From a virus, in IMG/VR virus record IMGVR_UViG_3300023179_000040, positions 42,613 through 106,612 of that record: a stretch of DNA of 64,000 bases. One strand, written 5' to 3'. A model generated the notes under the pieces. That model saw nothing but the letters and a program-made list of their open reading frames with translations. It made no database searches and was not told the origin of the DNA. The position numbers and the translations under genes are program-made. Positions 1,639 through 55,688 of the stretch are shown one piece after another (the stretch's first letter is position 1; the number at the start of each line of letters is the position of its first letter).

Positions 1639-2832
1639 ATGAATCCAAACTATTTATTATTTAAAGTATCTGTTTTACAACATGCTACAGAAGGAACTAA
1701 TTGTTCCTATGCTGAAGATATATTGACGGTTGTTTGTAATCCTCAACCAACACCAACATGTACTAATACTCCAACATCTAGCAATACTCCTACACCAACT
1801 CCATCTATCACTGCTACAGCTACAGTAACACCATCTATCACTCCTACTATAAGTATAACTCCATCGATTACTGCTACTGTTAGTTTAACACCATCTATAA
1901 CTCCTACTAATACTCAAACACCTACTCCTACAACAACACCGACTCCAACACTACCTCCAGTCATTCCACCACTACAGAGCATATCTATTGATAATGATCT
2001 AGTTTGGTTATTCAACACTAACGAATATCCTGTTTTGATTCAATCTCAAAGATCAGATACTAATGGAATGTCTTGGCAAGATATTGGCCCGTTTGTGAAT
2101 GTTGTTGCAAATGGATCGTCGTCTATATTCTATAACGGCGATACTAATACAAAGTATAGATCCAGAGCATTTTCTCTAGGCGCAGGAACCTTATCTAGCC
2201 CATGGTCTAATGTATATATCTATACCAATCCAGATGCTATAGCTGCACCTATTATTAATTATGACTTTAATACCTCATATTTATATATTTTTAATGTTAA
2301 TGATGTTTTAGTAAATATGATCATTGAAAAATCTGAAGATGGTATAGTTTGGCAATATGCATTGAGTACATCAGAAAGTATAAATGCTAACACTAATAAG
2401 TCTTTTACAATATCAGGAACTCCTTATACTAAATTCAGAGCTTTATATTTTAGTGCTGGTTTAGGATATTCGGTCAGCTCATGGAGTTATACTGATCTAA
2501 TTCTACCAACACCGACTTCAACACGAACTCCGACTCCTACTATTACTCCAACTAGTACTTCTAATTTTATTAATAGCTTAACAATATTGTCTGGATCTAA
2601 CTATATTTCTGGTAATGGATTAACTTTTAGTGGTAATACAGGAGATAGAATTGAATATATAGCACAAAATGGGTATGATTTACCATCCACTATGAATATT
2701 AGTGTTGGTGGTATTATCAAAGCCACAGTAATATTCCCAGCATCAATTTATAATAATAAATTATTTAAAGTTACTATTAGCGGTATTCCATATATAGGCA
2801 ATTTTATTGCTGGAAATATTAATTTTATTTAA
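1639..2832 (+). CDS. T/P-linker virion protein with two FN3-like repeats
   Basis: TPT tracts flank two similar units (LFNTN...RSxxNGxSW...YRSRA...SPWS / IFNVN...KSEDGIVW...FRAL...SSWS). Confidence 0.6.
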   Translation: MNPNYLLFKVSVLQHATEGTNCSYAEDILTVVCNPQPTPTCTNTPTSSNTPTPTPSITATATVTPSITPTISITPSITATVSLTPSITPTNTQTPTPTTTPTPTLPPVIPPLQSISIDNDLVWLFNTNEYPVLIQSQRSDTNGMSWQDIGPFVNVVANGSSSIFYNGDTNTKYRSRAFSLGAGTLSSPWSNVYIYTNPDAIAAPIINYDFNTSYLYIFNVNDVLVNMIIEKSEDGIVWQYALSTSESINANTNKSFTISGTPYTKFRALYFSAGLGYSVSSWSYTDLILPTPTSTRTPTPTITPTSTSNFINSLTILSGSNYISGNGLTFSGNTGDRIEYIAQNGYDLPSTMNISVGGIIKATVIFPASIYNNKLFKVTISGIPYIGNFIAGNINFI

Positions 2833-2848
2833 TTAAAGGAAATAATTC

Positions 2849-4954
2849 ATGGTATATCCTACTGGAAATAATAGTGCAAATTATAATTCTTGTGCTAATT
2901 GGGATGGTTCGATAAATGGCAATGTTACTACTGTTGGAAGTAATGGTGGGCCATCTGCTTATGGTACTTATGACCAGAGCGGTAACGTTAATGAATGCGT
3001 TATATCATCAAACCAAAGTTATTTGTTCGGTGGTGATTTTAATGACCCCGATTTCTATTTATCTGCTGCTGCTGCAACTCCAGTAGCACCATTTGCTACA
3101 TATACATTAGGATCTCCTAGCATGGGTTTTCGTTTAGCGTCATTATTAGACATTTATAGCTATAGTAGTTTTGTTGCGGTAGGAGATGCATCTAATCTTA
3201 ATAATATCTATGGATGTGGATTTGTCCCTTATGCCTATAAAATAGGTCAATATACAGTAACTGTTTGTGAATATGTTGAGTTTTTAAATTCTATAGCAAA
3301 AACAGATACTAATAAAGTATATGATATTAATATGGCTAGTGATAGATGCGGGATATTAAGATCTGGAACACCTGGTAATTATATATATGATATTCGCTCC
3401 ACATATGCTAATAAACCAGTTGTTTATGTTAGTGTTATGAATATGTTGAGATATTGTAATTGGCTACACAATAGAAAGCTATCTGGTACACAGGATGAAA
3501 CTACAACAGAGGACGGTGCATATTATATATCGCCGCTCGCAGTAATTCAACAAAGACCTAATCCCCTGTATAGACTGCCAACAGTAAATGAATGGCATAA
3601 AGCAGCTTATTACAAGGGTGGTGGTACTAACGCTGGTTATTGGACTTATGCTACTCAAACAGACACAGCCCCAATATGTGTAACGGCAAATTCCAATGGC
3701 GATGGACCTTTCTTGTCCAATTATATATGCTCTTATGTTGTTCCTGGTCCTACTCCAACACCTACTAATACCGTAACACCATCAGAAACACCAACAAATA
3801 CTCCTACGCCAACTGTTACTCCAACCAACACAATCACTCCGACAGTCACCCCAACTAATACCGTAACACGAACAAATACTCCAACACCTACTGTTACTCC
3901 AACTGTTACTCCAACCAACACAATCACTCCGACAGTCACCCCAACTAATACAAGAACTCCAACCGTTACTCCTACTAATACCGTAACACCATCAGAAACA
4001 CCAACAAATACTCCTACGCCAACTGTTACTCCAACCAACACAATCACTCCGACAGTCACCCCAACTAATACCGTAACACCAACAGTGACAAAAACACCTA
4101 CTCATACTCCAAGAATAACGAGCACACCAACACCGTCACCAACCAAACCTGTACCCCCCACAATGATTACTCAAAAACTTCAATTTGTTAAATATTTAGG
4201 ACAATCTGATATAGAAATATCTTCATTATCCAGTAATATATTGAATCAAATAGACACTATATACTATATTGACAATCAATCTTCATGGCTCTCATGGAGT
4301 GCTAACGGAATCAATAGTTTAAGCTCTTTACAAAGATATAAAACATATTTAATTATTAGCAAAAATAGTAATCCTAATTATAGTCTATATAGCAATACAG
4401 ATATATTGGATTCAACATCATTTACTATTCTTAATAAAAATATTTCTATAGAAACTTATCGAGGACATAGCTCTTTGATTATTAATAATGCATCATGGAA
4501 GAATAATATTAATAAAATTATAGGATTAAATAGCACTAGTTCGTCGTATATTAGTTGGGATTCATTAATACCAGCTAATCTGAATAGTCTAATGTCTTTA
4601 GAACCGAATAATGGATATATCTTTTTTGCAAATACAACACCCATAGTATTATGGTCAGAGACTTTAAGATCAATTAATAATTGGACATATAGATATAATA
4701 ATTTTTTGTCTTTAAGATTCATACCTAATACATTTGAATCCACCATAGAACTATCTGTACCAATGGTGGACACTTTAGATCTTCCTTCTGTTGGAACACC
4801 AGCTCCACTACCGTCTACTTGTGTAGTAACCAGAAATGGTAGTAAAATTGGAGATTTACTATTTATACCAGCATATAATGGTAAAAATATAACAGCTATT
4901 ATCAGTGGAATATCATATTCATCCACTATTAATAATGGTCAAATTAATTTTTAA
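2849..4954 (+). CDS. FGE-sulfatase (CLec-fold) domain protein, circularly permuted, with long T/P linker
   Basis: Motifs [49 protein letters not shown]; AAGGA RBS upstream. Confidence 0.75.
3745..4160 (+). repeat. Coding tandem repeat (T-[VI]-T-P-T-N units)
   Basis: Degenerate 12-30 nt units with a ~120 nt higher-order repeat. Confidence 0.9.
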
Positions 4955-4961
4955 TAACATC

Positions 4962-4976
4962 GGTGTATATTACTAT
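4962..4976 (+). promoter_or_regulatory. Putative phage-specific promoter GGTGTAT-N5-TAT
   Basis: GGTGTATATTACTAT, intergenic, 54 nt before the ORF at 5016; motif recurs in other intergenic gaps. Confidence 0.65.
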
Positions 4977-5015
4977 CGCTAACCATATATTCTTATATTA
5001 TAAAGAGGCGCTAAA

Positions 5016-6089
5016 ATGTTGATTAATAATGAATTTGCTATAGAGAGATACAACGGTCAATATGCTCTAACTTTATTATCCGCTCCCGCAGGAATGGATA
5101 GTGCTACTCAGCAACAGTATACGTCTTTTATGAGTAATATTGTTACTATATATGGTAGTCAAAATGAACAAGGCGCTGTTCCTGTTTTTTTCAAAAATAG
5201 TTCTGGCGCCCCTAGTTCTAGTAGCACTCTTACTCAATTAGAATCTGGTCAAGAATATTATTTTATTTCCAAAAATACAGCAGTATTTCCATATGCTATT
5301 CCCGCTATCGGCGGACCAGCAACAGCGTCATGCCCCACTTTACCAACATGCTGCCCATATATTAATTTTACATCTAACAATGTTACATTATCAGGGCCGC
5401 CAGAAAATATTTATGCTTATCTTACTGCTAATATTAGCGGATTAGAGCCAGGAAAAGAATATAGGTACTCTTTTGAATCAGTAGCGGCTAATTGGCCATC
5501 TAGAGTTAGTCCAATAAGTGGAACATTTATTCCTATGTCTTATAGCGATACTATTGATGCTGTATTTCGTTTTTGTCCAGAATCTGGTAATTGCACTGAA
5601 TATTGGCAATATACTGCTGATACTAATCTTAACAAAGATTATAGTCAAAAAAATATTTTTTCATCTGTTAAAATCAAACTATATCCTACAGAAGGATCAG
5701 ATTGTGATGTTATGAGTGATATGGTAACTGTAAAGTGCAATAAATGTTTGCCTGGAGGATTATACTATAGACCCAAACCATCTATTGCTGGATCTCCAAA
5801 ATTATCTTTAACCGCTGGATGTTGTGCTAATCCTATTCCTTTAACTATTAATATTACCGGGGCTGAACCAGGTAAAAATTATACTTTTAATGTACAAGCT
5901 TGGCCAGATACTGTAGCGGTTAGTCCAGCTACTGGTATTAGTAGTTTTGGTGATGGAACTGGTAAAATATTATCTATGGTTAGTATGAGCGGTATCCCTA
6001 GTAGTGTTGTTAAATTTGTATTAAATGATAATGTTACTGGAGAAAGTTTCGTTGATTTTACCAGTATAGTATGCAACTCTAGTTGTTAA
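5016..6089 (+). CDS. Cys-rich virion protein with two Ig-like repeats
   Basis: Repeats NISGLEPGKEY...VSP and NITGAEPGKNY...VSP; CC motifs. Confidence 0.55.
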   Translation: MLINNEFAIERYNGQYALTLLSAPAGMDSATQQQYTSFMSNIVTIYGSQNEQGAVPVFFKNSSGAPSSSSTLTQLESGQEYYFISKNTAVFPYAIPAIGGPATASCPTLPTCCPYINFTSNNVTLSGPPENIYAYLTANISGLEPGKEYRYSFESVAANWPSRVSPISGTFIPMSYSDTIDAVFRFCPESGNCTEYWQYTADTNLNKDYSQKNIFSSVKIKLYPTEGSDCDVMSDMVTVKCNKCLPGGLYYRPKPSIAGSPKLSLTAGCCANPIPLTINITGAEPGKNYTFNVQAWPDTVAVSPATGISSFGDGTGKILSMVSMSGIPSSVVKFVLNDNVTGESFVDFTSIVCNSSC

Positions 6090-6121
6090 TTTATAGGAAT
6101 TTTAGTATCATAGGATAGAGT

Positions 6122-8266
6122 ATGCCATATGTTGTTCCTAGTCCAACGGTTACACCAACATCATCAGTTACTCCGTCTGTAACTCCTACACATAGTATTA
6201 CACCAACAGTTACACAGACCAATCGTATCAGATATCATAAAACTAATTTGCCAGATACTGTAAATATTGATTGTATTGATGATTGTACAGTGCAAAATTT
6301 TACAGGATATGGATCTGATCGATCAGTATCATTGAGCTGGGAGCTTGATTCTTATTGCTCTAGTTTAGTTAAAAACTTTACTATAGAATATAAATTATCT
6401 GGAGCATCAAGTTGGACTTTTTATAGTAATGCAACTAATACAGATAGAAGTATTATTGTAAATAATTTAATTAATAATTATGCATATATTTTTAAATTAT
6501 CTATGATTAGATATAGTAGTAGCGTATCTTCTAGCTATTGTAGCGTTGTAATATCTCCTTCTGAGTCAAAAACCCCCACACCAACCGTTACTCAAACAGT
6601 TACTCCAACACATAGTTTAACTCCATCTGTTACTCCAACTAACACAAGTACTCCAACTGTTACTCCAACCAACACAATCACTCCGACAGTCACCCCAACT
6701 AATACAAGAACTCCAACCGTTACTCCTACTAATACCGTAACACCATCAGAAACACCAACAAATACTCCTACGCCAACTGTTACTCCAACCAACACAATCA
6801 CTCCGACAGTCACCCCAACTAACACAAGTACTCCAACCGTTACTCCTACTAATACCGTAACACCATCAGAAACACCAACAAATACTCCTACGCCAACTGT
6901 TACTCCTACTAACACAGTAACTCCCACTAACACTGTTACCCCAACTAATACTGTGACTCCAACCAACACAATCACTCCGACAGTCACCCCAACTAACACA
7001 AGTACTCCAACCGTTACTCCTACTAATACCGTAACACCAACAAATGCTCCTACTAATACCGTAACACCAACAAATACTCCTACGCCAACTGTTACTCCTA
7101 CTAACACAGTAACTCCCACTAACACTGTTACCCCAACTAATACTGTGACTCCAACCAACACAAGTACTCCAATTGATACCGTAAAACCAACAAATACTCC
7201 AACACCTACAGTTACTCCAACACATAGTTTAACTCCATCTGTTACTCCAACTAACACAGCTACTCCAACTAACACAAGTACTCCAACTGTTACTCCTACT
7301 AATACCGTAACACCATCAGAAACACCAATGCCGCCGCCATCACAAACTCCAATCCTCGAGTTTCCAACTCCTACGCCGCAGGCACCACAACCTCCGGTGC
7401 CGGTGCCGTGCGACTGTACTTTGCCACAAAGTATTAATCAATATTATATATATGACAGCAATGGTAACCCAGCTCCAAATTCTTTTGCCGAATTATATAG
7501 TAAGTGTACTGTTTATGCTGCAGGAGGATTTGCACGGTGTGAGTTTGTCGGATTTCCTTGTCATTATTTTGGTGATGATGTAGGGTTAAATGGCGGAGAT
7601 TGTATATTAAAATGGACATACGGATATTTAGATACTAAAATAGGTTCTACATTTTTAGCCAGAGGTATATTCAGTATGACTTTTGAAGGATATAGCTTAA
7701 GTAAAATTAAAATATATGAGTGTACCGGGAAAACCTGGACAGATGTTTCTGAACAAGCATTGTCACCCGAATTTGGTAGTACTGTTCCTTTTATTAATGG
7801 GTGGTGGTGGAATGATTTTGAAAGACCATCTGCTGCTCCGGGAGGTGATGTATCTCCACCGATTACTATTCCGTTAACGCCGCCGTGCTGCGTGCCCAAT
7901 GCTCCTTGTGATGGTGATTGCTATAATCTTTTCGGAGCGTCAATTTGTGACGATTGTCCACCAGGATATACTAATAATGGAATGAATTGTAATTATCCAT
8001 GTATTAAAAATTGTGAATGTTGTTTATGTGATATTCCGAATAATAATCTTGTTTCAGTAAGTATAGAAGAATTTAATTTAAGTAATGGACCAGAAGTATG
8101 CGTTTCAGATATTGAATTATTTACAAGTCCTTCCGGATCAGGTACTATTTATTGTGGTCATGCTTTAGATCTAAATGCCTTTTCCATTATTTGGACAGAT
8201 TCTGGTAATACAGACTCTAATGGGAATAGTGTATATGATGTTATGAAAACAAAAAAATATGTATAA
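6122..8266 (+). CDS. Modular fibre-like protein: FN3 domain, ~250 aa T/P stalk, Cys-rich C-terminal domains
   Basis: FN3-like VSLSW...IEYK...W...VNNL...YIFK; long TPTNT tract; PCDC...PPCC Cys-rich tail. Confidence 0.7.
6570..7325 (+). repeat. Coding T/P tandem repeat sharing identical blocks with repeats at ~3.9 kb and ~9.4 kb
   Basis: ~6651-6822 matches ~3897-4068; ~6893-7080 matches ~9380-9567. Confidence 0.9.
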
Positions 8267-8915
8267 TTTTAATTGTCAATTTAGAGAATCCGATAATAGT
8301 CCTTGTATTTGTAAATATCAATCGTTAAAATTAGGACATATAGTAAAAACATCTTCACTATTTTGTAATCATGAATGTCCGAAAAATGTTTATGAACAAG
8401 GAGAAGAAGATAAAGAATTTTTAATAAAGTGTTTTAATAGAAGATATAATCATGAATTTATAAATAAAGTAATAAATAAATTTGCTAAACAAACTAAACT
8501 TATAGTACCATCTATTTGGCCAGAAGTATTCCGCACTCTTTATGATATTTTGTCTCAAGAGTTATGGTTTGATGATATTGGGTTAACAGGATCCATAATA
8601 GTTGATGGAGTAGATAATCAAAAAGATATTGATATTGTAATAGGTATTAAAGACATAAATGAGTATATACAATGGTCAAAAAATAACTCATTACCAAACT
8701 ACATTAATAATATTAAAACAGATTATTATCTTTATGCAACTCCTATGGATCAAGCCAAAGAAACTATTTGTGGATCGTTTTTTTTATCTTTATGGCCAAA
8801 TAAAAAAATTATTTATACTAATGAATTATTTAAAAAAAATATAATTTTTCCAAATGATTATCAGGTATTTTATAATAATATTATCGATCAACTTTTTTAC
8901 AATATTGGTAAATAA
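8259..8915 (+). CDS. Pol-beta-fold minimal nucleotidyltransferase-like protein with Cys-rich N-terminus
   Basis: IGLTGS...KDIDIVI (GS plus DxD) and a downstream KTDYY third Asp; 8-nt overlap with the upstream gene. Confidence 0.55.
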
Positions 8916-8988
8916 ATGATAATGTTTCCAAAGAGAGTATAATTTCTAACAGTGGGGATCTCAAGCTTTAATAACTATTTACATACAT

Positions 8989-9003
8989 AGTGTATATAAT
9001 AGT
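8989..9003 (+). promoter_or_regulatory. Variant of phage promoter motif
   Basis: AGTGTATATAATAGT, 40 nt before the ORF at 9029. Confidence 0.45.
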
Positions 9004-9028
9004 AACTTTAAAAATTAATAAGTAATTT

Positions 9029-10195
9029 ATGATATTTAATAATACTAATTATATAGAATTTGCATATAACATTACTATTACCAATTTAACAATCGGAGAT
9101 GCCTATTCTATTAGTCTATCTTTGCTATCTGATTTTGCTCCAGAGCTAGCTTCTGTTAATCCTTCCACAATTTCTTTTATAGCTTCAGATTACTATCAGA
9201 ATATCTCTCTGCTAATAACTATGGATAAAAATGATCTACTAATACTAAAAATAGATAGCTTAAATACTACAAAAAATAAAAGAGATATTGATAGTGTTTT
9301 TATTAAATGTAGTGAAAGAAATTTATGTTCTCCTAGACCAACAAAAACACCGACAGTCACCCCAACTAACACAAGTACTCCAACTGTTACTCCTACTAAC
9401 ACAGTAACTCCCACTAACACTGTTACCCCAACTAATACTGTGACTCCAACCAACACAATCACTCCGACAGTCACCCCAACTAACACAAGTACTCCAACCG
9501 TTACTCCTACTAATACCGTAACACCAACAAATGCTCCTACTAATACCGTAACACCAACAAATACTCCACCTCTTTACACCACGCCGCCGCCACCTTGTTA
9601 TTGCAGATCTAATTGCACAATAAGCATGCCGGAGCCAGAAGGCAGCGAATCATGGAATTGGACGTTTTATTCTCAAGCGTTCTTAAATACGACGCCGCAA
9701 TCATTTTCACTGCAATCTGCTTACCAAGATTATTTGAGCGGATGTACCTACGTTTGGGTTTATTCGCACAGGCAGACGCTTGGCATTGATGATTTGTTCG
9801 TAGATGGGTGCCAAGCAAACGTTGGAGTGAACTTGCCAGGCAAAGGCTTTACTGGATTGTTGGGAATCGGGCGCGTCAAATTTCAATATCGTCTGATGCT
9901 ATGCCAAGACAACGTGTTTTTTGACATTACAGAAGACGCGCTAAGCGCGTGCGGTTATTCGGGCAGCACTCCTCAAAACGGGCCTCCATATACTAATCTT
10001 GTTTCGTCAAATTGTTTGAGCGGGGAGTATATGTGGTGGCAAACTAGCCAGGAGTCTGGTTTTGCCAGCGTTTCGGACGAGTTTTTGTACAAACGGTCGT
10101 GGTGTGACGGTAGCGTAGTGCTTGCACCAGAACGGCCGCCGTCGCCAGTAGGCACGCTCGATGTTGTTCCGACCCTTAATTGCGCAAACCCCTAG
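9029..10195 (+). CDS. Modular protein: Ig-like N-domain, T/P linker, high-GC Cys-rich C-terminal cassette
   Basis: ITNLTIGDAY N-domain; T/P tract; PCYC...LCQDNVFFDITEDALS C-domain. Confidence 0.7.
   Translation: MIFNNTNYIEFAYNITITNLTIGDAYSISLSLLSDFAPELASVNPSTISFIASDYYQNISLLITMDKNDLLILKIDSLNTTKNKRDIDSVFIKCSERNLCSPRPTKTPTVTPTNTSTPTVTPTNTVTPTNTVTPTNTVTPTNTITPTVTPTNTSTPTVTPTNTVTPTNAPTNTVTPTNTPPLYTTPPPPCYCRSNCTISMPEPEGSESWNWTFYSQAFLNTTPQSFSLQSAYQDYLSGCTYVWVYSHRQTLGIDDLFVDGCQANVGVNLPGKGFTGLLGIGRVKFQYRLMLCQDNVFFDITEDALSACGYSGSTPQNGPPYTNLVSSNCLSGEYMWWQTSQESGFASVSDEFLYKRSWCDGSVVLAPERPPSPVGTLDVVPTLNCANP
9345..9570 (+). repeat. Coding T/P repeat
   Basis: ~188 nt identical to 6893-7080. Confidence 0.9.
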
Positions 10196-10236
10196 CCGCT
10201 GCCATCACAAACTCCAATCCTCGCGTTTCCAACTCC
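10196..10236 (+). repeat. Dispersed 41-nt repeat (copy of 7331-7371)
   Basis: 39/41 identical; encodes PxPSQTPILxFPTP, in frame after the TAG of ORF 9029-10195. Confidence 0.9.
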
Positions 10237-10278
10237 AACACCAACCATTACGCCGACTACAACATACACAAATACGCC

Positions 10279-10422
10279 CGGGTGAGTTTAGTTCTTAATT
10301 TTGTCTTAAATCCGCTCAAAAGTGAAAATTTATTTTTAGTGGATCATATTTTATGTGCTTTTTGTGGATTTTTTAATCTATACTTTGTGCGTAATAAACT
10401 TGTTCCTTTTAAAGACTACTAG
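10279..10422 (+). pseudogene. 3' remnant of a paralog of the membrane protein at 55401-55688
   Basis: VSLVLNFVLNP...HILCAFCGFF-NLYFVRNKLVPFKD aligns with ISLLLTCFINP...NILSAFCGFFINLYFVRKHIIPFRD; the N-terminal half is absent. Confidence 0.7.
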
Positions 10423-10503
10423 TAATAAGTGTTCCAATTTGCTCCTTTAAACAAGCTTAATATTTAATCATATATTTATGATTAGCTTATTGACTATTAG
10501 CTT

Positions 10504-10541: not shown

Positions 10542-10781
10542 ATGGCTAATTCAAATTTAAAAGTAGTTTTTTCTTTTGGTAATATTGTTCAATTAGACAA
10601 TAATCAATGCTCTTGCCCAAATATGGTTGAGGTCAATGTGTCTAATTTAACTATAGGAAAAAATTATACGGTCTATATCAATAATTTAAATAATGTGCCA
10701 GTAAGAACTTTCCCCGAAAGCTACTCCTTTACTGCAACAAACGAAACCAAAAATTTATCATTCTATTATCAGTTTGCTTAA
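10542..10781 (+). CDS. Small stand-alone Ig-like domain protein
   Basis: VSNLTIGKNY...FPESYSF resembles the N-domain of ORF 9029; GGAG RBS. Confidence 0.6.
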   Translation: MANSNLKVVFSFGNIVQLDNNQCSCPNMVEVNVSNLTIGKNYTVYINNLNNVPVRTFPESYSFTATNETKNLSFYYQFA

Positions 10782-26148: not shown

Positions 26149-26886
26149 TTATTTCCATTCATTGTTAAAGCCCAATAATTCGCTCGGAATCTTAGACATA
26201 TCCTGTTGATATTGAGATAGTAGTCTTATCACAGACACCGCATCATCATGATTTAACGAGTATATGTTTTTTGATTCCAAAGAATTATTTTCTAAAAGTT
26301 TGGTTACATTTATATTAAGTCTTTTTGACAATACGTCAATAAAATTAATTTGATTATTTGTTATTTTAGATACAGAATTTTCATCTGGATGATCTTCTAT
26401 ATCTTTAGCCAATTCTTCAGCTGCTACTACTTTTCTTAGCTTAAGAGCTCTTCTTAGTGCTCTACCTTCTGCTCGTGTTTCGGCTACCGCTACAGGATGA
26501 TTACGATATACTTTATCGCAATTACCCCAATAAACGTCCGCAGAGCCATCCACTGTCACGGTATTTAATTCATTGATGGTGGACCCTGTGTCTTTTAAAT
26601 AAAAGCATAGGGAGTGTACCACAGTGGCCCTTTTTTCATTATCCGGTGATGGAGCTTGTACAACTTGGCTGGTTGATGATAATATTTGGCAATTTAATGC
26701 TATTTCAAATATGCGCCTAAGACCGTCAGTGGTTGGATTACCAGAAATTTTTTCATCATCCGCCAACAAAGATAACACATGGTCTGTCCAGGCTATATCG
26801 TTCGGTGTTATCTTGATAGTCTCCTGAACATTTTCTGATTGTGGTTCGGTATTTGATACTGCATTTTCTTTTTTAGATTTTGCCAT
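26149..26886 (-). CDS. Rad52/Rad22-like single-strand annealing protein (putative)
   Basis: DGSAD...AVAETRAEGRALRRAL motif; C-terminal ITNNQ helical domain. Confidence 0.5.
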   Translation of the reverse strand: MAKSKKENAVSNTEPQSENVQETIKITPNDIAWTDHVLSLLADDEKISGNPTTDGLRRIFEIALNCQILSSTSQVVQAPSPDNEKRATVVHSLCFYLKDTGSTINELNTVTVDGSADVYWGNCDKVYRNHPVAVAETRAEGRALRRALKLRKVVAAEELAKDIEDHPDENSVSKITNNQINFIDVLSKRLNINVTKLLENNSLESKNIYSLNHDDAVSVIRLLSQYQQDMSKIPSELLGFNNEWK

Positions 26887-27700
26887 TATAATCCTCTATA
26901 ATAAATGTCCTATTGTCTGCGGATGGAAAATTAGTAGATATATTCTTTAATATGTCTGATAGTTGGGAATAAATCAGATTTGCTCTAGTTACTGAAAAAT
27001 CTTTAGTTTGTTTAATCCTGATCAAAGCCATTCCTTTGCCAAGTAGAAGACCCTCTTTTTTACTATCATATGTTTGATTCTTTTTGAGTACTTCTTCACC
27101 CCACACCGGCAAAAAATGAGATGGTCCATCTACCTCTATGGCCGTATTCATGGTAGGTAGGAACAGATCTATTTGCAACTTTGTATTTGATAAGGTTTGT
27201 TCTTTATGAAAATCTACTTTATAGCCATTACTGATTAATTTATCTAATAGAAATCTTTCAAGTTTTGATCCAACTTTACTAGAATTCCTTACGGCCTGAT
27301 TAGCTTTTTTAATCATGTTTTGTTTAGTGTCTTCATCCATCTGATCCCATAGTTCTTTACTTTTATTTTTTCTATTTGCTAATTCTTGATCATCCAATGA
27401 ATCCCATGATTTTAATACTCCTTTACCAATTTTGGCCTTCTCAGAGTCCGAACGCTTACTACCTTTGGTCGGATGCTTATGTTTTCCAGTGCTTAGTGCA
27501 TTTTTTTGTGCATTAGATTTGTCTCGTATAGGTATTTTAAAGCTAATAGCATCTCTACGGACTTTATTGGCATATGTATTATATGACGCTGCTATATCGG
27601 CAAAACTATTTTTTTGTTTAATATATAGTTCTCTGATAAGCTGTTCTTTTTGTATTTTAGATAGTAGATTATAAGATTTCGGATAATTTGTCATAGTCAA
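26873..27700 (-). CDS. Vsr/DUF559-like PD-(D/E)XK endonuclease with N-terminal DNA-binding segments
   Basis: SKLE...IDLFLP...AIEVDGPSH...YDSKK; NUMOD3-like KGSKRSDSEKAKIG. Confidence 0.65.
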   Translation of the reverse strand: MTMTNYPKSYNLLSKIQKEQLIRELYIKQKNSFADIAASYNTYANKVRRDAISFKIPIRDKSNAQKNALSTGKHKHPTKGSKRSDSEKAKIGKGVLKSWDSLDDQELANRKNKSKELWDQMDEDTKQNMIKKANQAVRNSSKVGSKLERFLLDKLISNGYKVDFHKEQTLSNTKLQIDLFLPTMNTAIEVDGPSHFLPVWGEEVLKKNQTYDSKKEGLLLGKGMALIRIKQTKDFSVTRANLIYSQLSDILKNISTNFPSADNRTFIIEDYNGKI

Positions 27701-28142
27701 AATTCTCCACCATAGTAACGGGTTTTCTCCATACTATGCTATAAAGGTCATCTATTTCTTGATTGGAAGAAATAATATCGATATTATCAGACATAAATAA
27801 TGATTTCCAATAATTAATTGGTTTACGATTTTTTTCCCACGGTATATTTATGGCGTAATAAAAAAGTTTATTAGCGTTGATCAGCTTTGTTGCAAAGAAT
27901 AGGTCTTCTTCATTAAATGTTATGATATTACCGTAGAAAAACTTGGCTTGATTAATATTTAATATCGGAATATTTTTGCTGTCTATTAACTCACAATAAC
28001 TATTAAATACTACTATCTGATTAAATGGTCTATTATTAATGAATGAGCTTATTGTTTGTAAAATATTATTACTTACAGGGTCATTTTGTAGTGTTGGTAT
28101 CAAAAATCCAAGATCTTTATATTTCATAGTATGATGACTCAT
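27669..28142 (-). CDS. Hypothetical, glycosyltransferase N-domain-like
   Basis: Rossmann-like pattern (KLFYYAINIPW, IDIISSN); coupled in the GT operon. Confidence 0.35.
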   Translation of the reverse strand: MSHHTMKYKDLGFLIPTLQNDPVSNNILQTISSFINNRPFNQIVVFNSYCELIDSKNIPILNINQAKFFYGNIITFNEEDLFFATKLINANKLFYYAINIPWEKNRKPINYWKSLFMSDNIDIISSNQEIDDLYSIVWRKPVTMVENFDYDKLSEIL

Positions 28143-28831
28143 GCGAATAGTTGTTGTAAGAATAGAGAATATGAAGTATATGACGGTATATCAAGACTCT
28201 GGTCTTTGACCAAATCATTATTAAGTATTTTTATAACACTAGCACCGCACAATTTGGCCTCAATATAGTATGATCCATCAAGATCCAAATATGCATCGCA
28301 GGAATTAAGAAGCTCCGCTTTTTCTGCTTCATTAACAAATCCTAAATTTTGAGCATGAGTAATGTTTTTATTAAAGAATTTTATTCGTTTGTTGGATTTG
28401 GGATATAATAGGCTCATTAACTCATCAGGTATAGTAGTATAGCCATCTAAAAAACATATAATATCATTATTTCTTTCTGTCTGTTTGTTACCGATAAATA
28501 TATCGGTGTTAACGAGTCTTGGTATATGTCTGGTGAAAGAGTCTATATTGTGACTGATATGAATGCATTTTTTGGGTAAATTATTAATTAATTCTACTAG
28601 TGTAGTATCATGATGATATAATACAATATTTTTATTTGTTATGAATTCTTCTATAAATTGATATATTTCAGGAGTACACAAATTAGCACAAAAAATATAT
28701 GTATCAAAATTATAACGATAATGTATTTCGTATAAATTATTATTAATAACGCCAGAGGCTGTTTCCATATTACTTATAACTGATAAACTGTTAATAAATT
28801 TATCATCTATATATTGACTAAAAATTTTCAT
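28139..28831 (-). CDS. Degenerate GT-B glycosyltransferase-like protein
   Basis: NLGFVNEAEKAELLNSC...YYIEAKLCG resembles the GT-B C-domain. Confidence 0.45.
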   Translation of the reverse strand: MKIFSQYIDDKFINSLSVISNMETASGVINNNLYEIHYRYNFDTYIFCANLCTPEIYQFIEEFITNKNIVLYHHDTTLVELINNLPKKCIHISHNIDSFTRHIPRLVNTDIFIGNKQTERNNDIICFLDGYTTIPDELMSLLYPKSNKRIKFFNKNITHAQNLGFVNEAEKAELLNSCDAYLDLDGSYYIEAKLCGASVIKILNNDLVKDQSLDIPSYTSYSLFLQQLFA

Positions 28832-29496
28832 ATAAATACTTTGGCCTTAGAAATATCTTTGGTGCTATTAATTTTCATTATGTTTTTCTTATTAATAAAA
28901 TCTCGATCAAAATGGATATTATGTTTTTCAATTAAAAGATTGATCAGTTCAAATAAATACATTTGACTAATGTTTATTTCTTTATTTATATGGTTAATAC
29001 AATTAACGGCCATCCTGTTAAAGCTAACACACTCAGACCAAGCTATCGGTAAATCATAGAATAAATAATGGATATCATCTGATTCCGAACATCCTATGGT
29101 AAAATTATATTTTGGCTTGTCTATCAAAAAAATTTTAGACTCATCACTCATTTTAAATGGATTATTCTTAAATAATATACCATTACTAATCACCAATAAC
29201 TGATTAGATGAGTATTCTTGAGCAAATTTTCCTAATATGTAAGCTTGATTAGTTCTGGAGTACTCAGGATTTTCTATAAAATAAAGATTTTTATGATAGC
29301 TTTTGAATATTTTTTTAATTTTCTCAGACTCAAAGCCTGTTCCTATAAAAATATTTGCATGCTTATCATATTTTTTAATTTGATCTATTTGATATTGTAA
29401 AACAGAAACAGAATTCTTGATATGTAGTAAAGCTTTGGATCCTACCGATTTCATACCTTTTGTAATTTCTGGTACTAATATTAGAATATCAGGCAT
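28828..29496 (-). CDS. Sugar-phosphate nucleotidyltransferase-like (LicC/NTP_transferase fold), degenerate
   Basis: ILILVPEITKGMKSVGSKALL is at the position of IILAAGxGxRM..PKxLL; GFESE, NPEYSRTN. Confidence 0.55.
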   Translation of the reverse strand: MPDILILVPEITKGMKSVGSKALLHIKNSVSVLQYQIDQIKKYDKHANIFIGTGFESEKIKKIFKSYHKNLYFIENPEYSRTNQAYILGKFAQEYSSNQLLVISNGILFKNNPFKMSDESKIFLIDKPKYNFTIGCSESDDIHYLFYDLPIAWSECVSFNRMAVNCINHINKEINISQMYLFELINLLIEKHNIHFDRDFINKKNIMKINSTKDISKAKVFI

Positions 29497-30226
29497 AGTA
29501 ATAAATTTGTGGGTTATCTATTTCCTTAAAACTATCGTAAATATTTTTTTTGGTATATTTCATAAGCTCATAATAGTTTCTAAATGATAAAAATAGACCA
29601 TCTCCATTTTTTCTCATTAGCGCATGTATAATAGGCTGTTCTATGGCTACAATACTATTTAGTTTATTGATATCGCTGTTCCATGAGTTGCTGCTTTCTG
29701 ATTTATTTATCCATAGAAAATCTATTTTACTAATGATGTCATTGGTATCAAATACAGTATCTAAAACTCCTTGAGGGTCTAAATCTTCTAAGATATTATG
29801 CAACTTCCATGATATATCACCCAGCATTTTTGTACATATATCTATAATAGTTTTTGTATTATTGTTTCGTCTTACAACTAATGAGACGAACATGGGTTTG
29901 ACAGACAATGAGGCTATGCTTTGACAAATATCATAACATTCATCCTCATTTGAAATCATTACACATAAATAATACTTTATATTAGCATTATTGATAAGTC
30001 TTATTTTAAGCTGTTCAATATCTCCTATTGATTCTTGATATTGCTTATATGTTTCAATATTGAACGCAAATGGACACCTATATTCTAAAATTTTATTAAA
30101 ATTAGATTCTGATATATGGATAGTTTTTTTATTTTTTATTTGAGCTATAATAGACATAGCACATGGCTCGTCCGAGTTTGCATAATCAGCGAAAATACAT
30201 TTTTCACAATTAGTAGTTGTTTTCAT
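29489..30226 (-). CDS. Hypothetical with N-terminal CxxC, possible degenerate GT-A fold
   Basis: CEKCIFA...C; operon context. Confidence 0.35.
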   Translation of the reverse strand: MKTTTNCEKCIFADYANSDEPCAMSIIAQIKNKKTIHISESNFNKILEYRCPFAFNIETYKQYQESIGDIEQLKIRLINNANIKYYLCVMISNEDECYDICQSIASLSVKPMFVSLVVRRNNNTKTIIDICTKMLGDISWKLHNILEDLDPQGVLDTVFDTNDIISKIDFLWINKSESSNSWNSDINKLNSIVAIEQPIIHALMRKNGDGLFLSFRNYYELMKYTKKNIYDSFKEIDNPQIYYYA

Positions 30227-30654
30227 AGACTGTTCCTTTGAGCACTAATAGTGATTGATGTTTGATCATCGGCGTAAACTGTCTGGACAACTTTAAATGT
30301 ATTATTTTGTTCTATTGTTAGAGATAAAATTTCTGGAGATATAATCATTTGTTTGTCTTTAATATATTCTAAAAAATCTTTATCATCTATAGAATTCATA
30401 CTATATAGTCTAGTCACATATTTCATATTTGTTATTTCTGTCGTCAGTAATCCGCCCGGTCTAATTTTAGACATAATTTTTGGTAATATTATAGAGAGCT
30501 GTTCCGGCGTGATTTGTTCTAAAACATTTGTATAAATATGATCGACAGAACAATTAACAACCGTGTCTAATGCTCGAATGTCTAATTCTGTAAAACCGTC
30601 AATATGCTTATGATTATCGTTTATATAAATATTAATAAGTCTGGTCATGGTCAT
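30223..30654 (-). CDS. Class I SAM methyltransferase-like, degenerate
   Basis: SVDHIYTNVLEQI...KIRPGGLL; no GxGxG motif I. Confidence 0.5.
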   Translation of the reverse strand: MTMTRLINIYINDNHKHIDGFTELDIRALDTVVNCSVDHIYTNVLEQITPEQLSIILPKIMSKIRPGGLLTTEITNMKYVTRLYSMNSIDDKDFLEYIKDKQMIISPEILSLTIEQNNTFKVVQTVYADDQTSITISAQRNSL

Positions 30655-31526
30655 AGATTGGGCTTTCTGATTATATGATATATATGTGATAGTATCTCTT
30701 GGTTAAACTTTTCAAAACTATAATTCGTATTAATATTTTCAATTTGCTTATCAATATCTTTATTTTTGTATATTTCTAATTGTTGAGATATGATAGATGT
30801 TAGCTGATTTAAATCATATAATACTGTGTGATCGCATTTTTCTAGATTATGACTAGAAATAACAGAACAGCCATTGATCATTCCGAATAATACATTATAA
30901 TCATCCTGAAAATCAACTAACACACAATACTGTTGCGCTATACTACACAGATTATCGTATGATAATTCATTAATACTATTCAACATACCAGCATCAGGCC
31001 ACGTATGTATCAAGTTTTTATATAAAGTATTGACAATATGATTATTCTGATAGTTAACAAAAAGTACGGATTTTCTATTTTTATTTGATATTTGTTTTGG
31101 TAATGGTATACCATATTCGACTATTGGTGATTCTTCATTTATATGCCAACTATTTTTTATCGAGAGATTCCGAAATATTTTATATGATGATGCAAGATTA
31201 TTTTGAATTAAAAACTTATCTTCTTTCTTAACATCGTGTGCAGCGGTGTGTCGATAGTAGATTAAATCATTAATACATAAATGTTTTATGTGGTTTTTGT
31301 TAGACGCATACATACTAGGATTATTTGTCCAATATATATCATATCCGATTAATAAATGATTAAGAGCACTATCTGGTACTATTAATAATTTTTCGCATTT
31401 TTCTAGAGATTTATCAAAAATACTATTATTATAGTCATAAGATACGTATACGGGCACACCATTACCGTGTTCAGTAATAGTAAAAATAGGCTTTAAAATA
31501 TTCTGCATTATTGAAGTATGTTGCAT
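30651..31526 (-). CDS. Degenerate glycosyltransferase-like protein
   Basis: IVEYGIP...LSYDNL...QYCVLV...GMINGCSVIS...NYSFEKF follows the GT-B C-domain pattern. Confidence 0.45.
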   Translation of the reverse strand: MQHTSIMQNILKPIFTITEHGNGVPVYVSYDYNNSIFDKSLEKCEKLLIVPDSALNHLLIGYDIYWTNNPSMYASNKNHIKHLCINDLIYYRHTAAHDVKKEDKFLIQNNLASSYKIFRNLSIKNSWHINEESPIVEYGIPLPKQISNKNRKSVLFVNYQNNHIVNTLYKNLIHTWPDAGMLNSINELSYDNLCSIAQQYCVLVDFQDDYNVLFGMINGCSVISSHNLEKCDHTVLYDLNQLTSIISQQLEIYKNKDIDKQIENINTNYSFEKFNQEILSHIYHIIRKPNL

Positions 31527-44352: not shown

Positions 44353-44749
44353 TTTTAATCCTACTTGGCCATTCATCTATTTTATCAAACGGTAGCTCTA
44401 TATGTTCTATATCGTTAATAAGACACCATTCTTTTTTATCTTGATCTCTTTTTTTGTGATTTATAAATCCTAGAGTTGTATGGTGGAAGAATCTATTAAA
44501 TTTATAGTGTTGTTCTCCATGAACCTCTATACATCTTTTAATTAATGGCAAATAGAAATCCAAATATAAAGTTTCTGATCTCCTTACCATAATAGGAACT
44601 TCTTCTAATAATTGCAATGTTGGGAAGCATGATTTAATTAAATTTCTAGCTTCTAAATGCAACGAAGACTTATTATGCAAACTACCATTAGCGATGGTAC
44701 CAATTAATTGCCAGTTATAAGAATTACCATCCAAATCCTTCACTTGCAT
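44342..44749 (-). CDS. PD-(D/E)XK endonuclease
   Basis: LDFYLP...IEVHGEQHY...RDQDKKEWC. Confidence 0.75.
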   Translation of the reverse strand: MQVKDLDGNSYNWQLIGTIANGSLHNKSSLHLEARNLIKSCFPTLQLLEEVPIMVRRSETLYLDFYLPLIKRCIEVHGEQHYKFNRFFHHTTLGFINHKKRDQDKKEWCLINDIEHIELPFDKIDEWPSRIKNEY

Positions 44750-45765
44750 GTGATGCCCATAGTTTCCTTAACTTTTGACCATAAATCTTCATAAACCTCT
44801 GGATGTTCTACTAAATATTGTCTAGCCTTTTCTAGGCCCTGAAATTTTGGCTTATCACTGACAGATGACATAGTATACCATGCTCCGCCTTTGGACACAA
44901 GCCCCAAATCTACAGACAGGTTCAATAATTCCATTTGTTTGTCTATTCCAGAACCATATCTCAAATATGATGTTATTTTACCTCCCGGAGCACCCAGTGC
45001 TGAACATACAACTTGCCAATGGACTTCTTGTCCTATTTGGGGACTATCGGTTGTTAGGTTCCATGGACTAAAATAATTTGCTTTGAGTTTGATATCCGTT
45101 TGATAAGCAATAGCCTGACCGCTCTTTTCTTTCCATTCACTATGACCCATGCCAGGATTACCCATCAAGTGAGTAATACCTATAACAATATTTTTATTTA
45201 CAGGAATAACATTCGCCACTTTTCGGCAAAATTTAGCAAGAAGTTTGGCTCCGTCTGCTCTCTGCATTTTATTCATATCGCTCGTTATCTCGGCTTCTGT
45301 ACAAAGGGCAGAATACGAATCTATAATTAGAATAGATCCTGGAACCTCATTTATAATTCTTTCTGCTATTTGCAAATATTCTTCTGCATGCAAGATCTTT
45401 CCTTCTTGAGAACCTATAATATTAAATCTTTCTAAATCTAATCCTGGTATTCCTTCTAAGTCTCTTTTTTTCAATCTACCTTCGATGTTCAGGTAGTACA
45501 CTTCTCTACCCTTTTTGAAAGATCCATGAGCGTATTGTTCTTTTTGTGCGGTTGCACAGAAATCTAGCGATGTTGTTGTTTTTCCGCATTTGGGATGTCC
45601 TGTAAGAATTACAAAACTTCCTTCTGGTATGCCTCCATTTAATACTACATCTATTGAAGGACTTACTGGGATGGTAATAAGCTTTTTATCAATAACAGCA
45701 TTTGCTGTGATTAAAATGTTATCACCAAAATTTTTTTTCACATCTTCTTTAATTGCCATTGTCAA
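44740..45765 (-). CDS. recA: RecA/UvsX recombinase
   Basis: LNGGIPEG, GHPKCGKTT, IIDSYSAL, SGQAIAY, GAWY, KFQG. Confidence 0.9.
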   Translation of the reverse strand: MTMAIKEDVKKNFGDNILITANAVIDKKLITIPVSPSIDVVLNGGIPEGSFVILTGHPKCGKTTTSLDFCATAQKEQYAHGSFKKGREVYYLNIEGRLKKRDLEGIPGLDLERFNIIGSQEGKILHAEEYLQIAERIINEVPGSILIIDSYSALCTEAEITSDMNKMQRADGAKLLAKFCRKVANVIPVNKNIVIGITHLMGNPGMGHSEWKEKSGQAIAYQTDIKLKANYFSPWNLTTDSPQIGQEVHWQVVCSALGAPGGKITSYLRYGSGIDKQMELLNLSVDLGLVSKGGAWYTMSSVSDKPKFQGLEKARQYLVEHPEVYEDLWSKVKETMGITCK

Positions 45766-47956: not shown

Positions 47957-48541
47957 TTATCCGAAATATGATGGTGGTATATACATTAACCATTCTTGTG
48001 GAATGTCATGTCTTATAGTAGATAGGTGATAGGACACAGGCAAGTATTTAAGATTTTTTTGTGGACACACTGGGATACTTAATAAGGGCATATTAGCTTG
48101 CTTTGGCGTCTTATTGTCCTTTTTTCTATTACAGTCTACACATGCAGTTACTATATTAGTCCAACAAGTTGGTGATGATATATTAAAATTCCATTTAGAT
48201 TTTGGTATAACATGATCATATGTTAATTTACTAATGTCTTTTTTAATACCGCAATATTGACAGGTATAATTATCTCTAATAAAAATATTTTTACGAGAAA
48301 AATTTACACGTTGAAAATTGAGTTTGAAATATTTACAAGTTCTCATAACACAAGGAATTGGGTATCTCTTATTATTTGTTCCAATAATATAATCGTCTTT
48401 ATAGAAATCCATAACTTCTATATCTCTATGAGATCCATTTTCATACTTTAAACTCCAAACAACTGCTCTTCTCCAATCTATTATACCTAATGGAGAATAA
48501 TCAGCGTTTAGAACTAAGCATCTATTGTTTTCCTGTTTCAT
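47957..48541 (-). CDS. HNH endonuclease
   Basis: LVLNADYSPL, RDNYTCQYCG, TYDHVIP, WTNIVTACVDCNRKK. Confidence 0.9.
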   Translation of the reverse strand: MKQENNRCLVLNADYSPLGIIDWRRAVVWSLKYENGSHRDIEVMDFYKDDYIIGTNNKRYPIPCVMRTCKYFKLNFQRVNFSRKNIFIRDNYTCQYCGIKKDISKLTYDHVIPKSKWNFNISSPTCWTNIVTACVDCNRKKDNKTPKQANMPLLSIPVCPQKNLKYLPVSYHLSTIRHDIPQEWLMYIPPSYFG

Positions 48542-55400: not shown

Positions 55401-55688
55401 TTAATCACGAAACGGAATAATATGCTTACGAACAAAATATAGATTGATAAAAAATCCACAAAAAGCACTAAGAATATTAGAAACCACAGGAAAGGTAATA
55501 TCCTCGAACGGATTAATAAAACAAGTAAGCAGTAGGCTTATCCAAAAACTACTACATTCATGACACAACAGAGGTTTGCTAAGTATAGGAAATTTTGCTA
55601 TATAATTTCTGAATGGGACACTAACCTCTGTGTCGCTCCATGCATAACAAACACCTAAAGATAAACATAAAAAATATAATAAAATCAT
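55401..55688 (-). CDS. Small membrane protein with CxxC (DUF1360-like)
   Basis: Hydrophobic helices, LLCHECSSFW. Confidence 0.55.
   Translation of the reverse strand: MILLYFLCLSLGVCYAWSDTEVSVPFRNYIAKFPILSKPLLCHECSSFWISLLLTCFINPFEDITFPVVSNILSAFCGFFINLYFVRKHIIPFRD

Follow-up and report, generated by a model that had tools for sequence, protein, structure and literature searches.

Here we describe a cluster of genes, in a 64,000-nt stretch of viral DNA (the window), that appear to have exchanged parts of their coding sequence. The window forms the final 64 kb of the 106,612-nt record IMGVR_UViG_3300023179_000040, a metagenome-derived IMG/VR contig that is linear, has a GC content of ~33% and is judged ~71% complete by CheckV. 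Genes 3, 5 and 7, which we infer from position and domain types to encode virion adhesins, each contain a long threonine/proline-rich (T/P) linker, and blocks of these linkers are identical from gene to gene at the nucleotide level. These blocks are probably the footprint of concerted evolution, by homologous recombination, among three paralogous coding minisatellites. The blocks, and the genes that carry them, are as follows.

3895–4068, plus strand: block A, copy 1, 174 nt, exact match to 6649–6822.
6649–6822, plus strand: block A, copy 2, exact match to 3895–4068.
6893–7080, plus strand: block B, copy 1, 188 nt, exact match to 9380–9567.
9380–9567, plus strand: block B, copy 2, ending precisely at the end of the gene 7 array.
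2849–4954, plus strand: gene 3, 701 residues, an open reading frame (ORF) with a match to Pfam PF03781 (6.5e-13). Its parts, from the ORF and Pfam, are an FGE-sulfatase/C-type-lectin-fold domain (2849–3730), a (Thr-X)n linker (3731–4183) and a C-domain (4184–4954).
6122–8266, plus strand: gene 5, 714 residues, with a T/P leader (6125–6220), an FN3-like module (6221–6550), a (Thr-X)n linker (6551–7426) and an orphan Cys-rich C-domain (7427–8266).
9029–10195, plus strand: gene 7, 388 residues, with an Ig-like N-module (9029–9325), a (Thr-X)n linker (~9320–9613) and a Cys-rich C-domain (9614–10195).

Direct comparison bears out the two identities that an earlier, sequence-only reading of this DNA had pointed to: 3897–4068 equals 6651–6822 at 172 of 172 positions, and 6893–7080 equals 9380–9567 at 188 of 188. 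Identity falls off abruptly at the block edges. With diverged edges included, block A aligns at 96.9% over 193 columns (3877–4068 versus 6631–6822), and block B at 95.0% over 222 nt (6859–7080 versus 9346–9567). The two copies of block A are offset by 2754 nt (3 × 918) and those of block B by 2487 nt (3 × 829), with the same codon phase in both cases, and genes 3, 5 and 7 lie in the same absolute frame. Thr, Pro and Val are each specified by four different codons in the linkers (sum of squared codon frequencies 0.32–0.41). Based on linker codon usage, the probability that copies of the same peptide would be encoded by identical codons throughout is ~10^-23.5 for the 57 codons of one block and ~10^-25.7 for the 62 codons of the other, which excludes convergence or codon bias as the source of the match. 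As had also been claimed, the flanking domains are unrelated. All four flank pairs (the FGE domain of gene 3 with the FN3 module of gene 5, the C-domains of genes 3 and 5, the FN3 module of gene 5 with the N-module of gene 7, and the C-domains of genes 5 and 7) score z ≤ 1.0 by Smith-Waterman alignment against 500 shuffles, and this excludes duplication of whole genes. With whole-gene duplication and convergence both excluded, transfer of DNA tracts between arrays remains. A recent transfer of DNA confined to the linkers, as first proposed, is hence required by the exact in-phase blocks, the codon odds and the unrelated flanks. The C-domains of genes 5 and 7 have no detectable sequence relation (z = 1.0), leaving the idea that they are paralogous Cys-rich tips without sequence-level support. 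Finally, the T/P tracts of the ORFs at 3–1631 and 1639–2832 lack the blocks, again in line with the earlier claim, all self-matches of the window lying within 3758–10242. These two tracts consist of other units, and that only arrays built of the same units take part fits a homology-dependent process.

The internal structure of the linkers tells of further rearrangement. All three are tandem arrays of 12-nt (TPTV) and 18-nt (TPTNTx) units, which combine into 30-nt periods and, above these, into higher-order repeats of 90, 120 and 192 nt. Exact duplications are found within two of the genes:

3761–4079, plus strand: gene 3 linker duplication, 3761–3869 equal to 3971–4079 (exact over 109 nt; TRF periods of 30, 90 and 120 nt).
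6871–7163, plus strand: gene 5 linker duplication, 6871–6971 equal to 7063–7163 (exact over 101 nt; higher-order repeats of 120 and 192 nt).

Two further exact copies in the gene 5 linker measure 84 and 77 nt. When the three arrays are compared in 60-nt windows, almost all windows match at 95% or better elsewhere in those arrays, and the identities of the tracts fall at 100%, at 97–98% and at 90–95%, a mosaic that suggests events of different ages. The 876-nt array of gene 5 contains both a gene 3-type segment (6631–6822) and a gene 7-type segment (6859–7080). Other units in the arrays that encode the same peptide differ at synonymous positions and are 65–90% identical. As polypeptides, the linkers are strict (Thr-X)n repeats, every Thr falling in a single dipeptide phase over 134, 254 and 76 residues; Thr occupies 62 of 67 alternate positions in 3749–4150, 116 of 127 in 6569–7330 and 37 of 38 in 9341–9568. 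The 12-, 18- and 30-nt units all keep this phase. Such strictness suggests a structural or modification constraint beyond that expected of a floppy linker. T/P sequence also occurs at gene ends: a dangling T/P tail closes the 1113-residue gene (1540–1631), and the T/P leader of gene 5 (6122–6220; MPYVVPSPT...) is similar to the sequence with which the gene 3 linker begins (YVVPGPT...). Genes seem to start and end inside linkers, which suggests that they break and join in T/P tracts.

Gene 7 offers a view of a larger event. Its C-domain has a GC content of 43–57% (9600–10250), as compared to ~33% for the phage and 23–31% for its own N-module. The only relative of this domain that was found, P0002, is a stand-alone protein of 221 residues encoded on a 14.3-kb Logan/ENA contig; it is 92% identical to the C-domain and ends at the same residue, with a different N-terminal end. 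Scans of viral and genome contigs with P0002 found nothing. Beyond the TAG stop of gene 7 lies a further T/P-type segment:

10196–10285, plus strand: relic linker, 29 in-frame T/P-type codons that follow the stop of gene 7 and end in TGA.

The first ~47 nt of this relic (10195–10242) are ~92–94% identical to the end of the gene 5 linker (7330–7377; 16 residues), which in gene 5 precedes the C-domain. Reassignment of TAG, considered as an explanation for the T/P codons after the stop, is ruled out, as TAG ends 19 of 93 ORFs. We read gene 7 as a probable graft of a foreign 3′ gene end into a gene 5-type linker, by which the displaced downstream part was mostly lost. Alternatively, the relic could be what is left, after decay, of the start of a gene that once lay downstream.

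Comparison with related phages places these events in a longer history. Five distinct relatives carry homologues of genes 8 and 9 (36–47% and 32–43% identity, respectively), and just upstream of gene 8, all five have different T/P-linked modular genes, with FGE, Ig_3, Laminin_G_3 or Peptidase_M43 domains. The region is thus hypervariable and of adhesin type, but keeps its place within the tail module. If relatives kept fixed pairings of N- and C-terminal domains, shuffling at the linkers would be in doubt. Fixed pairing is not what is seen for the FGE module or for the N-module of gene 7, which occur in varied orders and with varied partners; it is kept for the FGE-linker-C-domain arrangement of gene 3 in one relative, P0004. 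The FGE module, N-terminal in gene 3, has full-length homologues in other positions. It is C-terminal, after a T/P linker, in L014 (45%); internal and present twice, between T/P linkers, in L013 (41% and 36%); and in P0005 (48%) it is again N-terminal, the order thereafter being a T/P linker, a module like the gene 7 N-module (56%), a second T/P linker and a Cys-rich domain of a different kind. Modules like the gene 7 N-module are found in eight relatives, and in multidomain proteins they lie beside T/P linkers. Their position is N-terminal in P0010, P0011 and P0012, internal in P0005, and at the extreme C-terminus in P0006. They stand alone in P0007, P0008 and P0009 (91–114 residues, from other metagenomes), as in a 79-residue ORF of the window itself. 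Homologous modules thus have different partners and orders in the relatives, with breakpoints at the T/P repeat, and this supports the idea that T/P linkers have acted as shuffling joints for adhesin modules over evolutionary time.

The exception, P0004, is informative in another way. This protein of 1188 residues comprises RCC1 repeats, a propeller-like region, an FGE domain, a T/P linker and the same C-domain as gene 3. Residues 532–1188 are collinear with residues 7–701 of the gene 3 product, the pairing having been stable over 54–59% amino-acid divergence. The ends of the linker are kept, and its interior is different and less repetitive. It follows that the domain pairing of gene 3 is old and that only the linker interior has been overwritten. 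As judged from sequence, the homogenization of this interior with that of gene 5 is gene conversion without a domain swap.

With regard to mechanism, we envisage the following. Genes 3, 5 and 7 each consist of unrelated binding-type modules joined by a (Thr-X)n stalk, and the stalks belong to one unit family. Long and similar arrays in direct orientation within 6 kb, together with the phage's own UvsX-like recombinase, would constitute a substrate for recombination. Gene conversion (which is non-reciprocal), unequal exchange and replication slippage would repeatedly copy multi-unit tracts between and within arrays. Such copying would wipe out synonymous differences inside the arrays and leave the flanking domains unrelated, and duplications and deletions inside an array would shift the length of the stalk. 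The common, in-phase DNA would permit in-frame fusions, deletions and cassette replacements at the linkers and, in the long term, recombination there could reshuffle the adhesin modules of the phage group. Two genes of the replication module are candidates for a part in this process:

44740–45765, minus strand: UvsX/RecA-like recombinase (PHROG 97, 1e-37).
39123–40205, minus strand: phage exonuclease (PHROG 69, 1e-18).

The UvsX-like protein is likely the strand-exchange enzyme for repeat recombination; a role for the exonuclease in recombination is possible. Tract exchange seems to follow passively from the repeats themselves, with no dedicated machine. FGE/C-type-lectin domains are typical targets of diversity-generating retroelements (DGRs). 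The claim of the earlier reading that neither a reverse transcriptase nor an invertase is involved held up across the 106.6-kb record, with the ~71% completeness noted above and with positive controls. The record gave no match to the reverse transcriptase family PF00078, and no serine recombinase (resolvase/invertase) or tyrosine recombinase; and self-BLAST of the whole record, in which 49 of 56 self-matches are T/P arrays, gave no template/variable pair with adenine-specific mismatches. A DGR is rejected for want of a reverse transcriptase and a DGR-type repeat pair, and invertase-driven switching for want of a site-specific recombinase, the repeats moreover being direct and not inverted.

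Several observations weigh against concerted evolution of the arrays as set out here. Nine distinct genomes of relatives have at least two T/P genes in the fetched loci; with a threshold of at least 60 nt at ≥95% identity between distant linkers, eight of them lack shared blocks. The sole exception is L019 (IMGVR_UViG_3300042197_002516), which comes from a different sample, has homologues of genes 8 and 9, and carries an exact 95-nt block (61–155 equal to 4686–4780) that the linkers of two neighbouring genes share in one codon phase; its contig ends inside a T/P array. L019 is a second, independent case and, as such, speaks for the process. Going by these genomes, shared blocks in the group are recurring but episodic and are not a built-in property. 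Their rarity may mean that the process itself is episodic, or that it needs arrays that are similar by chance. A second point is that only a single genome of the exact lineage is at hand, and the direction, rate and age of the transfers, like any effect on host range, are matters of inference. A third is that UvsX is implicated by being encoded in the genome. Lastly, both copies of each block are known from the assembled contig and not from single molecules at single-copy depth, and merging of bulges during assembly could have turned an identity of ~97–99% into one of 100%.

It is also possible that the blocks are more than a footprint, and belong to a selected diversification device, in which identical, in-phase linker cassettes are kept because they yield frequent chimeric adhesins, much like antigenic variation by gene conversion but in a virion. 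We consider this unlikely. Several features would suit such a device: the repeats (174 and 188 nt) are direct, in phase and in the same absolute frame, and hence every crossover between them would give an in-frame chimera; the phage encodes its own recombinase; module pairings vary among relatives; gene 7 looks like a fossil of tip replacement; and a second genome (L019) has a shared block. The predicted crossover products are an FGE-stalk fusion to the C-domain of gene 5 (887 residues, by a 2754-nt deletion) and an FN3-stalk fusion to the C-domain of gene 7 (528 residues, by a 2487-nt deletion). However, identity in phase follows automatically from a shared peptide repeat, and crossovers between direct repeats would delete 2.5–2.75 kb, including whole genes, which amounts to loss rather than to reversible switching. 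The genes between the block copies are these:

5016–6089, plus strand: gene 4, 357 residues, two Ig/FN3-like modules without a T/P linker, between the copies of block A.
8259–8915, plus strand: gene 6, 218 residues, without a family match, between the copies of block B.

Moreover, most relatives have no shared blocks, the pairing in gene 3 has been stable, no silent store of cassettes or control element is seen, and no variant molecules were observed, there being no reads in which to look for them. To call the locus a domain-shuffling system, as the sequence-only reading tentatively did, goes beyond the evidence, given the eight of nine relatives without shared blocks and the old pairing retained in P0004. 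A related idea is that stalk DNA serves as a standing recombination substrate, with a measurable fraction of the genomes in each burst carrying chimeric or length-variant adhesins through general recombination only. This too seems improbable; were it true, it would provide for host-range bet-hedging at the population level without a dedicated enzyme.

Could the blocks be a product of assembly? In that case, shared graph nodes would have been walked more than once or near-identical copies merged, and the identity, the array lengths and the segment order in gene 5 would be unreal. There is some reason for concern. The record is a metagenome contig, the blocks exceed usual k-mers and sit in tandem arrays, which are hard to resolve with short reads, the gene 5 linker looks like a gene 3-type segment followed by a gene 7-type segment, and the L019 contig ends inside such an array. 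In addition, a second public contig encodes the exact proteins of genes 2, 4, 6 and 8 and of the 79-residue ORF, while the exact gene 3 protein is present only in IMG, and those of genes 5 and 7 are absent from the collection, a pattern that fits other assemblies breaking in the T/P arrays. Nonetheless, each block is tied to two different unique flanks, and the k-mers across these junctions must occur in the reads, as an assembler cannot invent k-mers. All three frames are open and the Thr-X phase is kept over 76–254 residues; the matches run past the exact blocks with ordinary substitutions (95–97%); the assembled order is the sole linear path that uses each unique segment once; and L019 exhibits the same phenomenon in another sample. 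Taken together, the boundary k-mers, the substitutions beyond the blocks, the intact frames and phase, and L019 indicate a real similarity between the genes. The exact 100% identity, the lengths of the arrays and the internal order of the gene 5 array could still have been altered when repeats were resolved or bulges merged. On balance, we regard an artefact as quite unlikely.

Another scenario is exchange between phages, by which each linker segment would have been imported separately, at co-infection, from relatives with the same linker DNA. A TPTVTPTNT-type decapeptide does recur in the linkers of distant relatives (P0004, P0005, P0006 and L019), and the C-domain of gene 7 is clearly imported, as indicated by its GC content and by its 92% relative P0002 in another context. 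But when 2.9 million viral contigs were searched for two 35-nt stretches of the blocks, exact matches occurred nowhere other than in the record itself. Two imports, each 100% like the resident copy, would also require more steps than copying over 2.5–2.75 kb, and the exact duplications within genes show that the arrays are rearranged locally. This scenario is very unlikely to account for the blocks. Other searches for close relatives were likewise sparse in their returns: megablast of 2800–10500 against 50,697 phage records gave no match, a search of viral contigs with gene 8 gave two distant relatives only (46% and 35%), a scan of metagenomes gave only a 100% identical genome, and a scan of viral contigs with the C-domain of gene 3 found nothing. 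As for convergence, in which selection on the peptide repeat plus codon bias would suffice with no transfer of DNA, the peptide motif is indeed conserved across relatives, yet the use of four codons each for Thr, Pro and Val (odds of full codon identity ~1e-23 to 1e-26) and the synonymous differences among other copies of the same units effectively refute it.

The concerted evolution that we favour has parallels in other systems, and repeat-mediated shuffling of modules is already a known theme in the evolution of phage fibres. In the antireceptors of Streptococcus thermophilus phages, collagen-like repeats separate the domains around VR2 and have been proposed to be recombination hot spots (Duplessis and Moineau 2001, as cited in PMC5601072; PMC7242381). 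As in the genes described here, a low-complexity repeat forms the spacer between variable binding domains and is thought to supply homology for exchange, and internal deletions of the repeats occur. Those repeats are Gly-X-Y and their identity is between phages, whereas here the stalk is (Thr-X)n/Pro-Thr and the identity is among three genes of one genome, a case known from sequence alone. In T-even phages, according to a later paper that cites Tetart, Desplats and Krisch (1998), glycine-rich motifs of gp38/gp37 are recombinational hot spots for modular shuffling (PMC12032242). Short conserved motifs flank the hypervariable segments of these adhesins, recombination at the motifs swaps specificity, and UvsX is encoded there too. 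The T-even motifs are short and structured, and lie in one adhesin that is subject to exchange between phages; the repeats here form long tandem arrays that encode a flexible stalk in separate genes.

Outside of phages, Warren et al. reportedly described in 1986 a conserved PT box that joins binding and catalytic domains, in opposite orders, in the cellulases CenA and Cex. There, as here, a Pro/Thr repeat connects independently folding modules whose order can vary (compare the FGE domain, N-terminal in gene 3 and C-terminal in L014). The two cellulases, from Cellulomonas fimi, have the PT box and are natively glycosylated (PMC8209791). They differ from the present case in that they are secreted bacterial enzymes with boxes of ~20 residues, as opposed to genes of a phage virion region with arrays of 76–290 residues and recent, exact nucleotide identity. 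The Clf/Sdr proteins of staphylococci have Ser-Asp repeat regions that undergo concerted evolution among surface-protein paralogues. The likeness lies in unrelated or diverged binding domains, homogenized repeat stalks and array lengths that vary by recombination; the differences are that we deal with a virus, with Thr/Pro chemistry and with adjacent genes in direct orientation. What is new here is the repeat chemistry, (Thr-X)n stalks of 76–290 residues, the exact identity between three neighbouring genes within a single phage genome, and the presence at one locus of conversion tracts, array expansion and a grafted tip.

The locus provides a nucleotide-level snapshot of how adhesins may be rebuilt in large uncultured phages. 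Thr/Pro stalks would serve both as mechanical spacers and as DNA homology for the copying of tracts, the growth and shrinkage of arrays and the grafting of foreign tips such as that of gene 7. If chimeras arise at a useful rate, such loci would be natural templates for the modular evolution of receptor-binding proteins without dedicated diversity generators. A practical implication is that, as metagenome assemblies break or mis-join in T/P arrays, the adhesin architectures in viral catalogues need confirmation by long reads.

The domains themselves were named in the earlier reading as FGE, FN3, Ig-like and Cys-rich. The first label stands (Pfam, 6.5e-13), and that of FN3 in gene 5 is supported, in that residues 31–143 match FN3 domains of titin (6e-8) and integrin beta-4 (1e-3). 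For the N-module of gene 7, the predicted structure is a seven-strand beta-sandwich (pLDDT 86) with fold-level likeness only to MSP, PapD-like and Fn3-like domains (TM ~0.5), which supports its description as a generic Ig-like sandwich. No family match was obtained for the C-domains of genes 3, 5 and 7, and "Cys-rich" therefore names no family. A word-based search of 5.8 billion proteins returned no homologue of the gene 5 C-domain, and the ESM Atlas gave weak beta-sandwich leads for the C-domain of gene 3 and none for that of gene 7. The two modules of gene 4 are paralogous to a module of the 1113-residue gene (by jackhmmer and BLAST). Genes 2 and 3 have in common a C-terminal end of ~50 residues (2700–2832 and 4800–4954; LPST...ISGI.Y...NG.INF; z = 6.9), also found in P0004, which could be an attachment or folding module. 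The notion that these proteins have an N-terminal anchor and a C-terminal tip finds no support: genes 3, 5 and 7 have no common N-domain, the gene 7 N-module can occupy any position, and genes 2 and 3 share a C-terminal end.

As for the surroundings, the adhesin genes are preceded by those for the terminase, the portal, the major head protein and a tape measure of 4,021 residues. After the tape measure comes a plus-strand run of genes for 251 and 1113 residues, genes 2–7, a 79-residue ORF, and genes for 652, 2087 and 2247 residues, the last three of which are conserved. The adhesin genes thus sit between the tape measure and these conserved proteins, at a site that is variable in all relatives. 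The remaining members of this run with coordinates are:

Ending at 1631 (ORF 3–1631), plus strand: the 1113-residue gene.
1639–2832, plus strand: gene 2, an ORF.
10542–10781, plus strand: small ORF P0001, 79 residues, a stand-alone paralogue of the gene 7 N-module (z = 5.1 versus shuffles).

An inverted match of 53 nt (87%) connects a distant intergenic region (55426–55477) with the one that follows gene 7 (10346–10394), and may represent a shared regulatory element. The rest of the window is a minus-strand replication module with a split DNA polymerase, helicase, primase, ribonucleotide reductase, and the UvsX-like recombinase and exonuclease listed above. Beside the structural genes lies a run of ten minus-strand ORFs (26149–34290). 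Pfam matches are confined to one of these, 32533–34290, which hits a glycosyltransferase family (Glycos_transf_1, 2e-9); nine are without any. A link between this glycosyltransferase gene and glycosylation of the Thr stalks is speculative, and a literature search on it yielded nothing usable. Lastly, two minus-strand genes, one for a PhoH-like protein of 651 residues (48522–50477) and one for the large subunit of ribonucleotide reductase (926 residues; 50927–53707), align with their PHROG profiles with large internal gaps. The gaps suggest that elements have been inserted, which may be inteins or a homing endonuclease.

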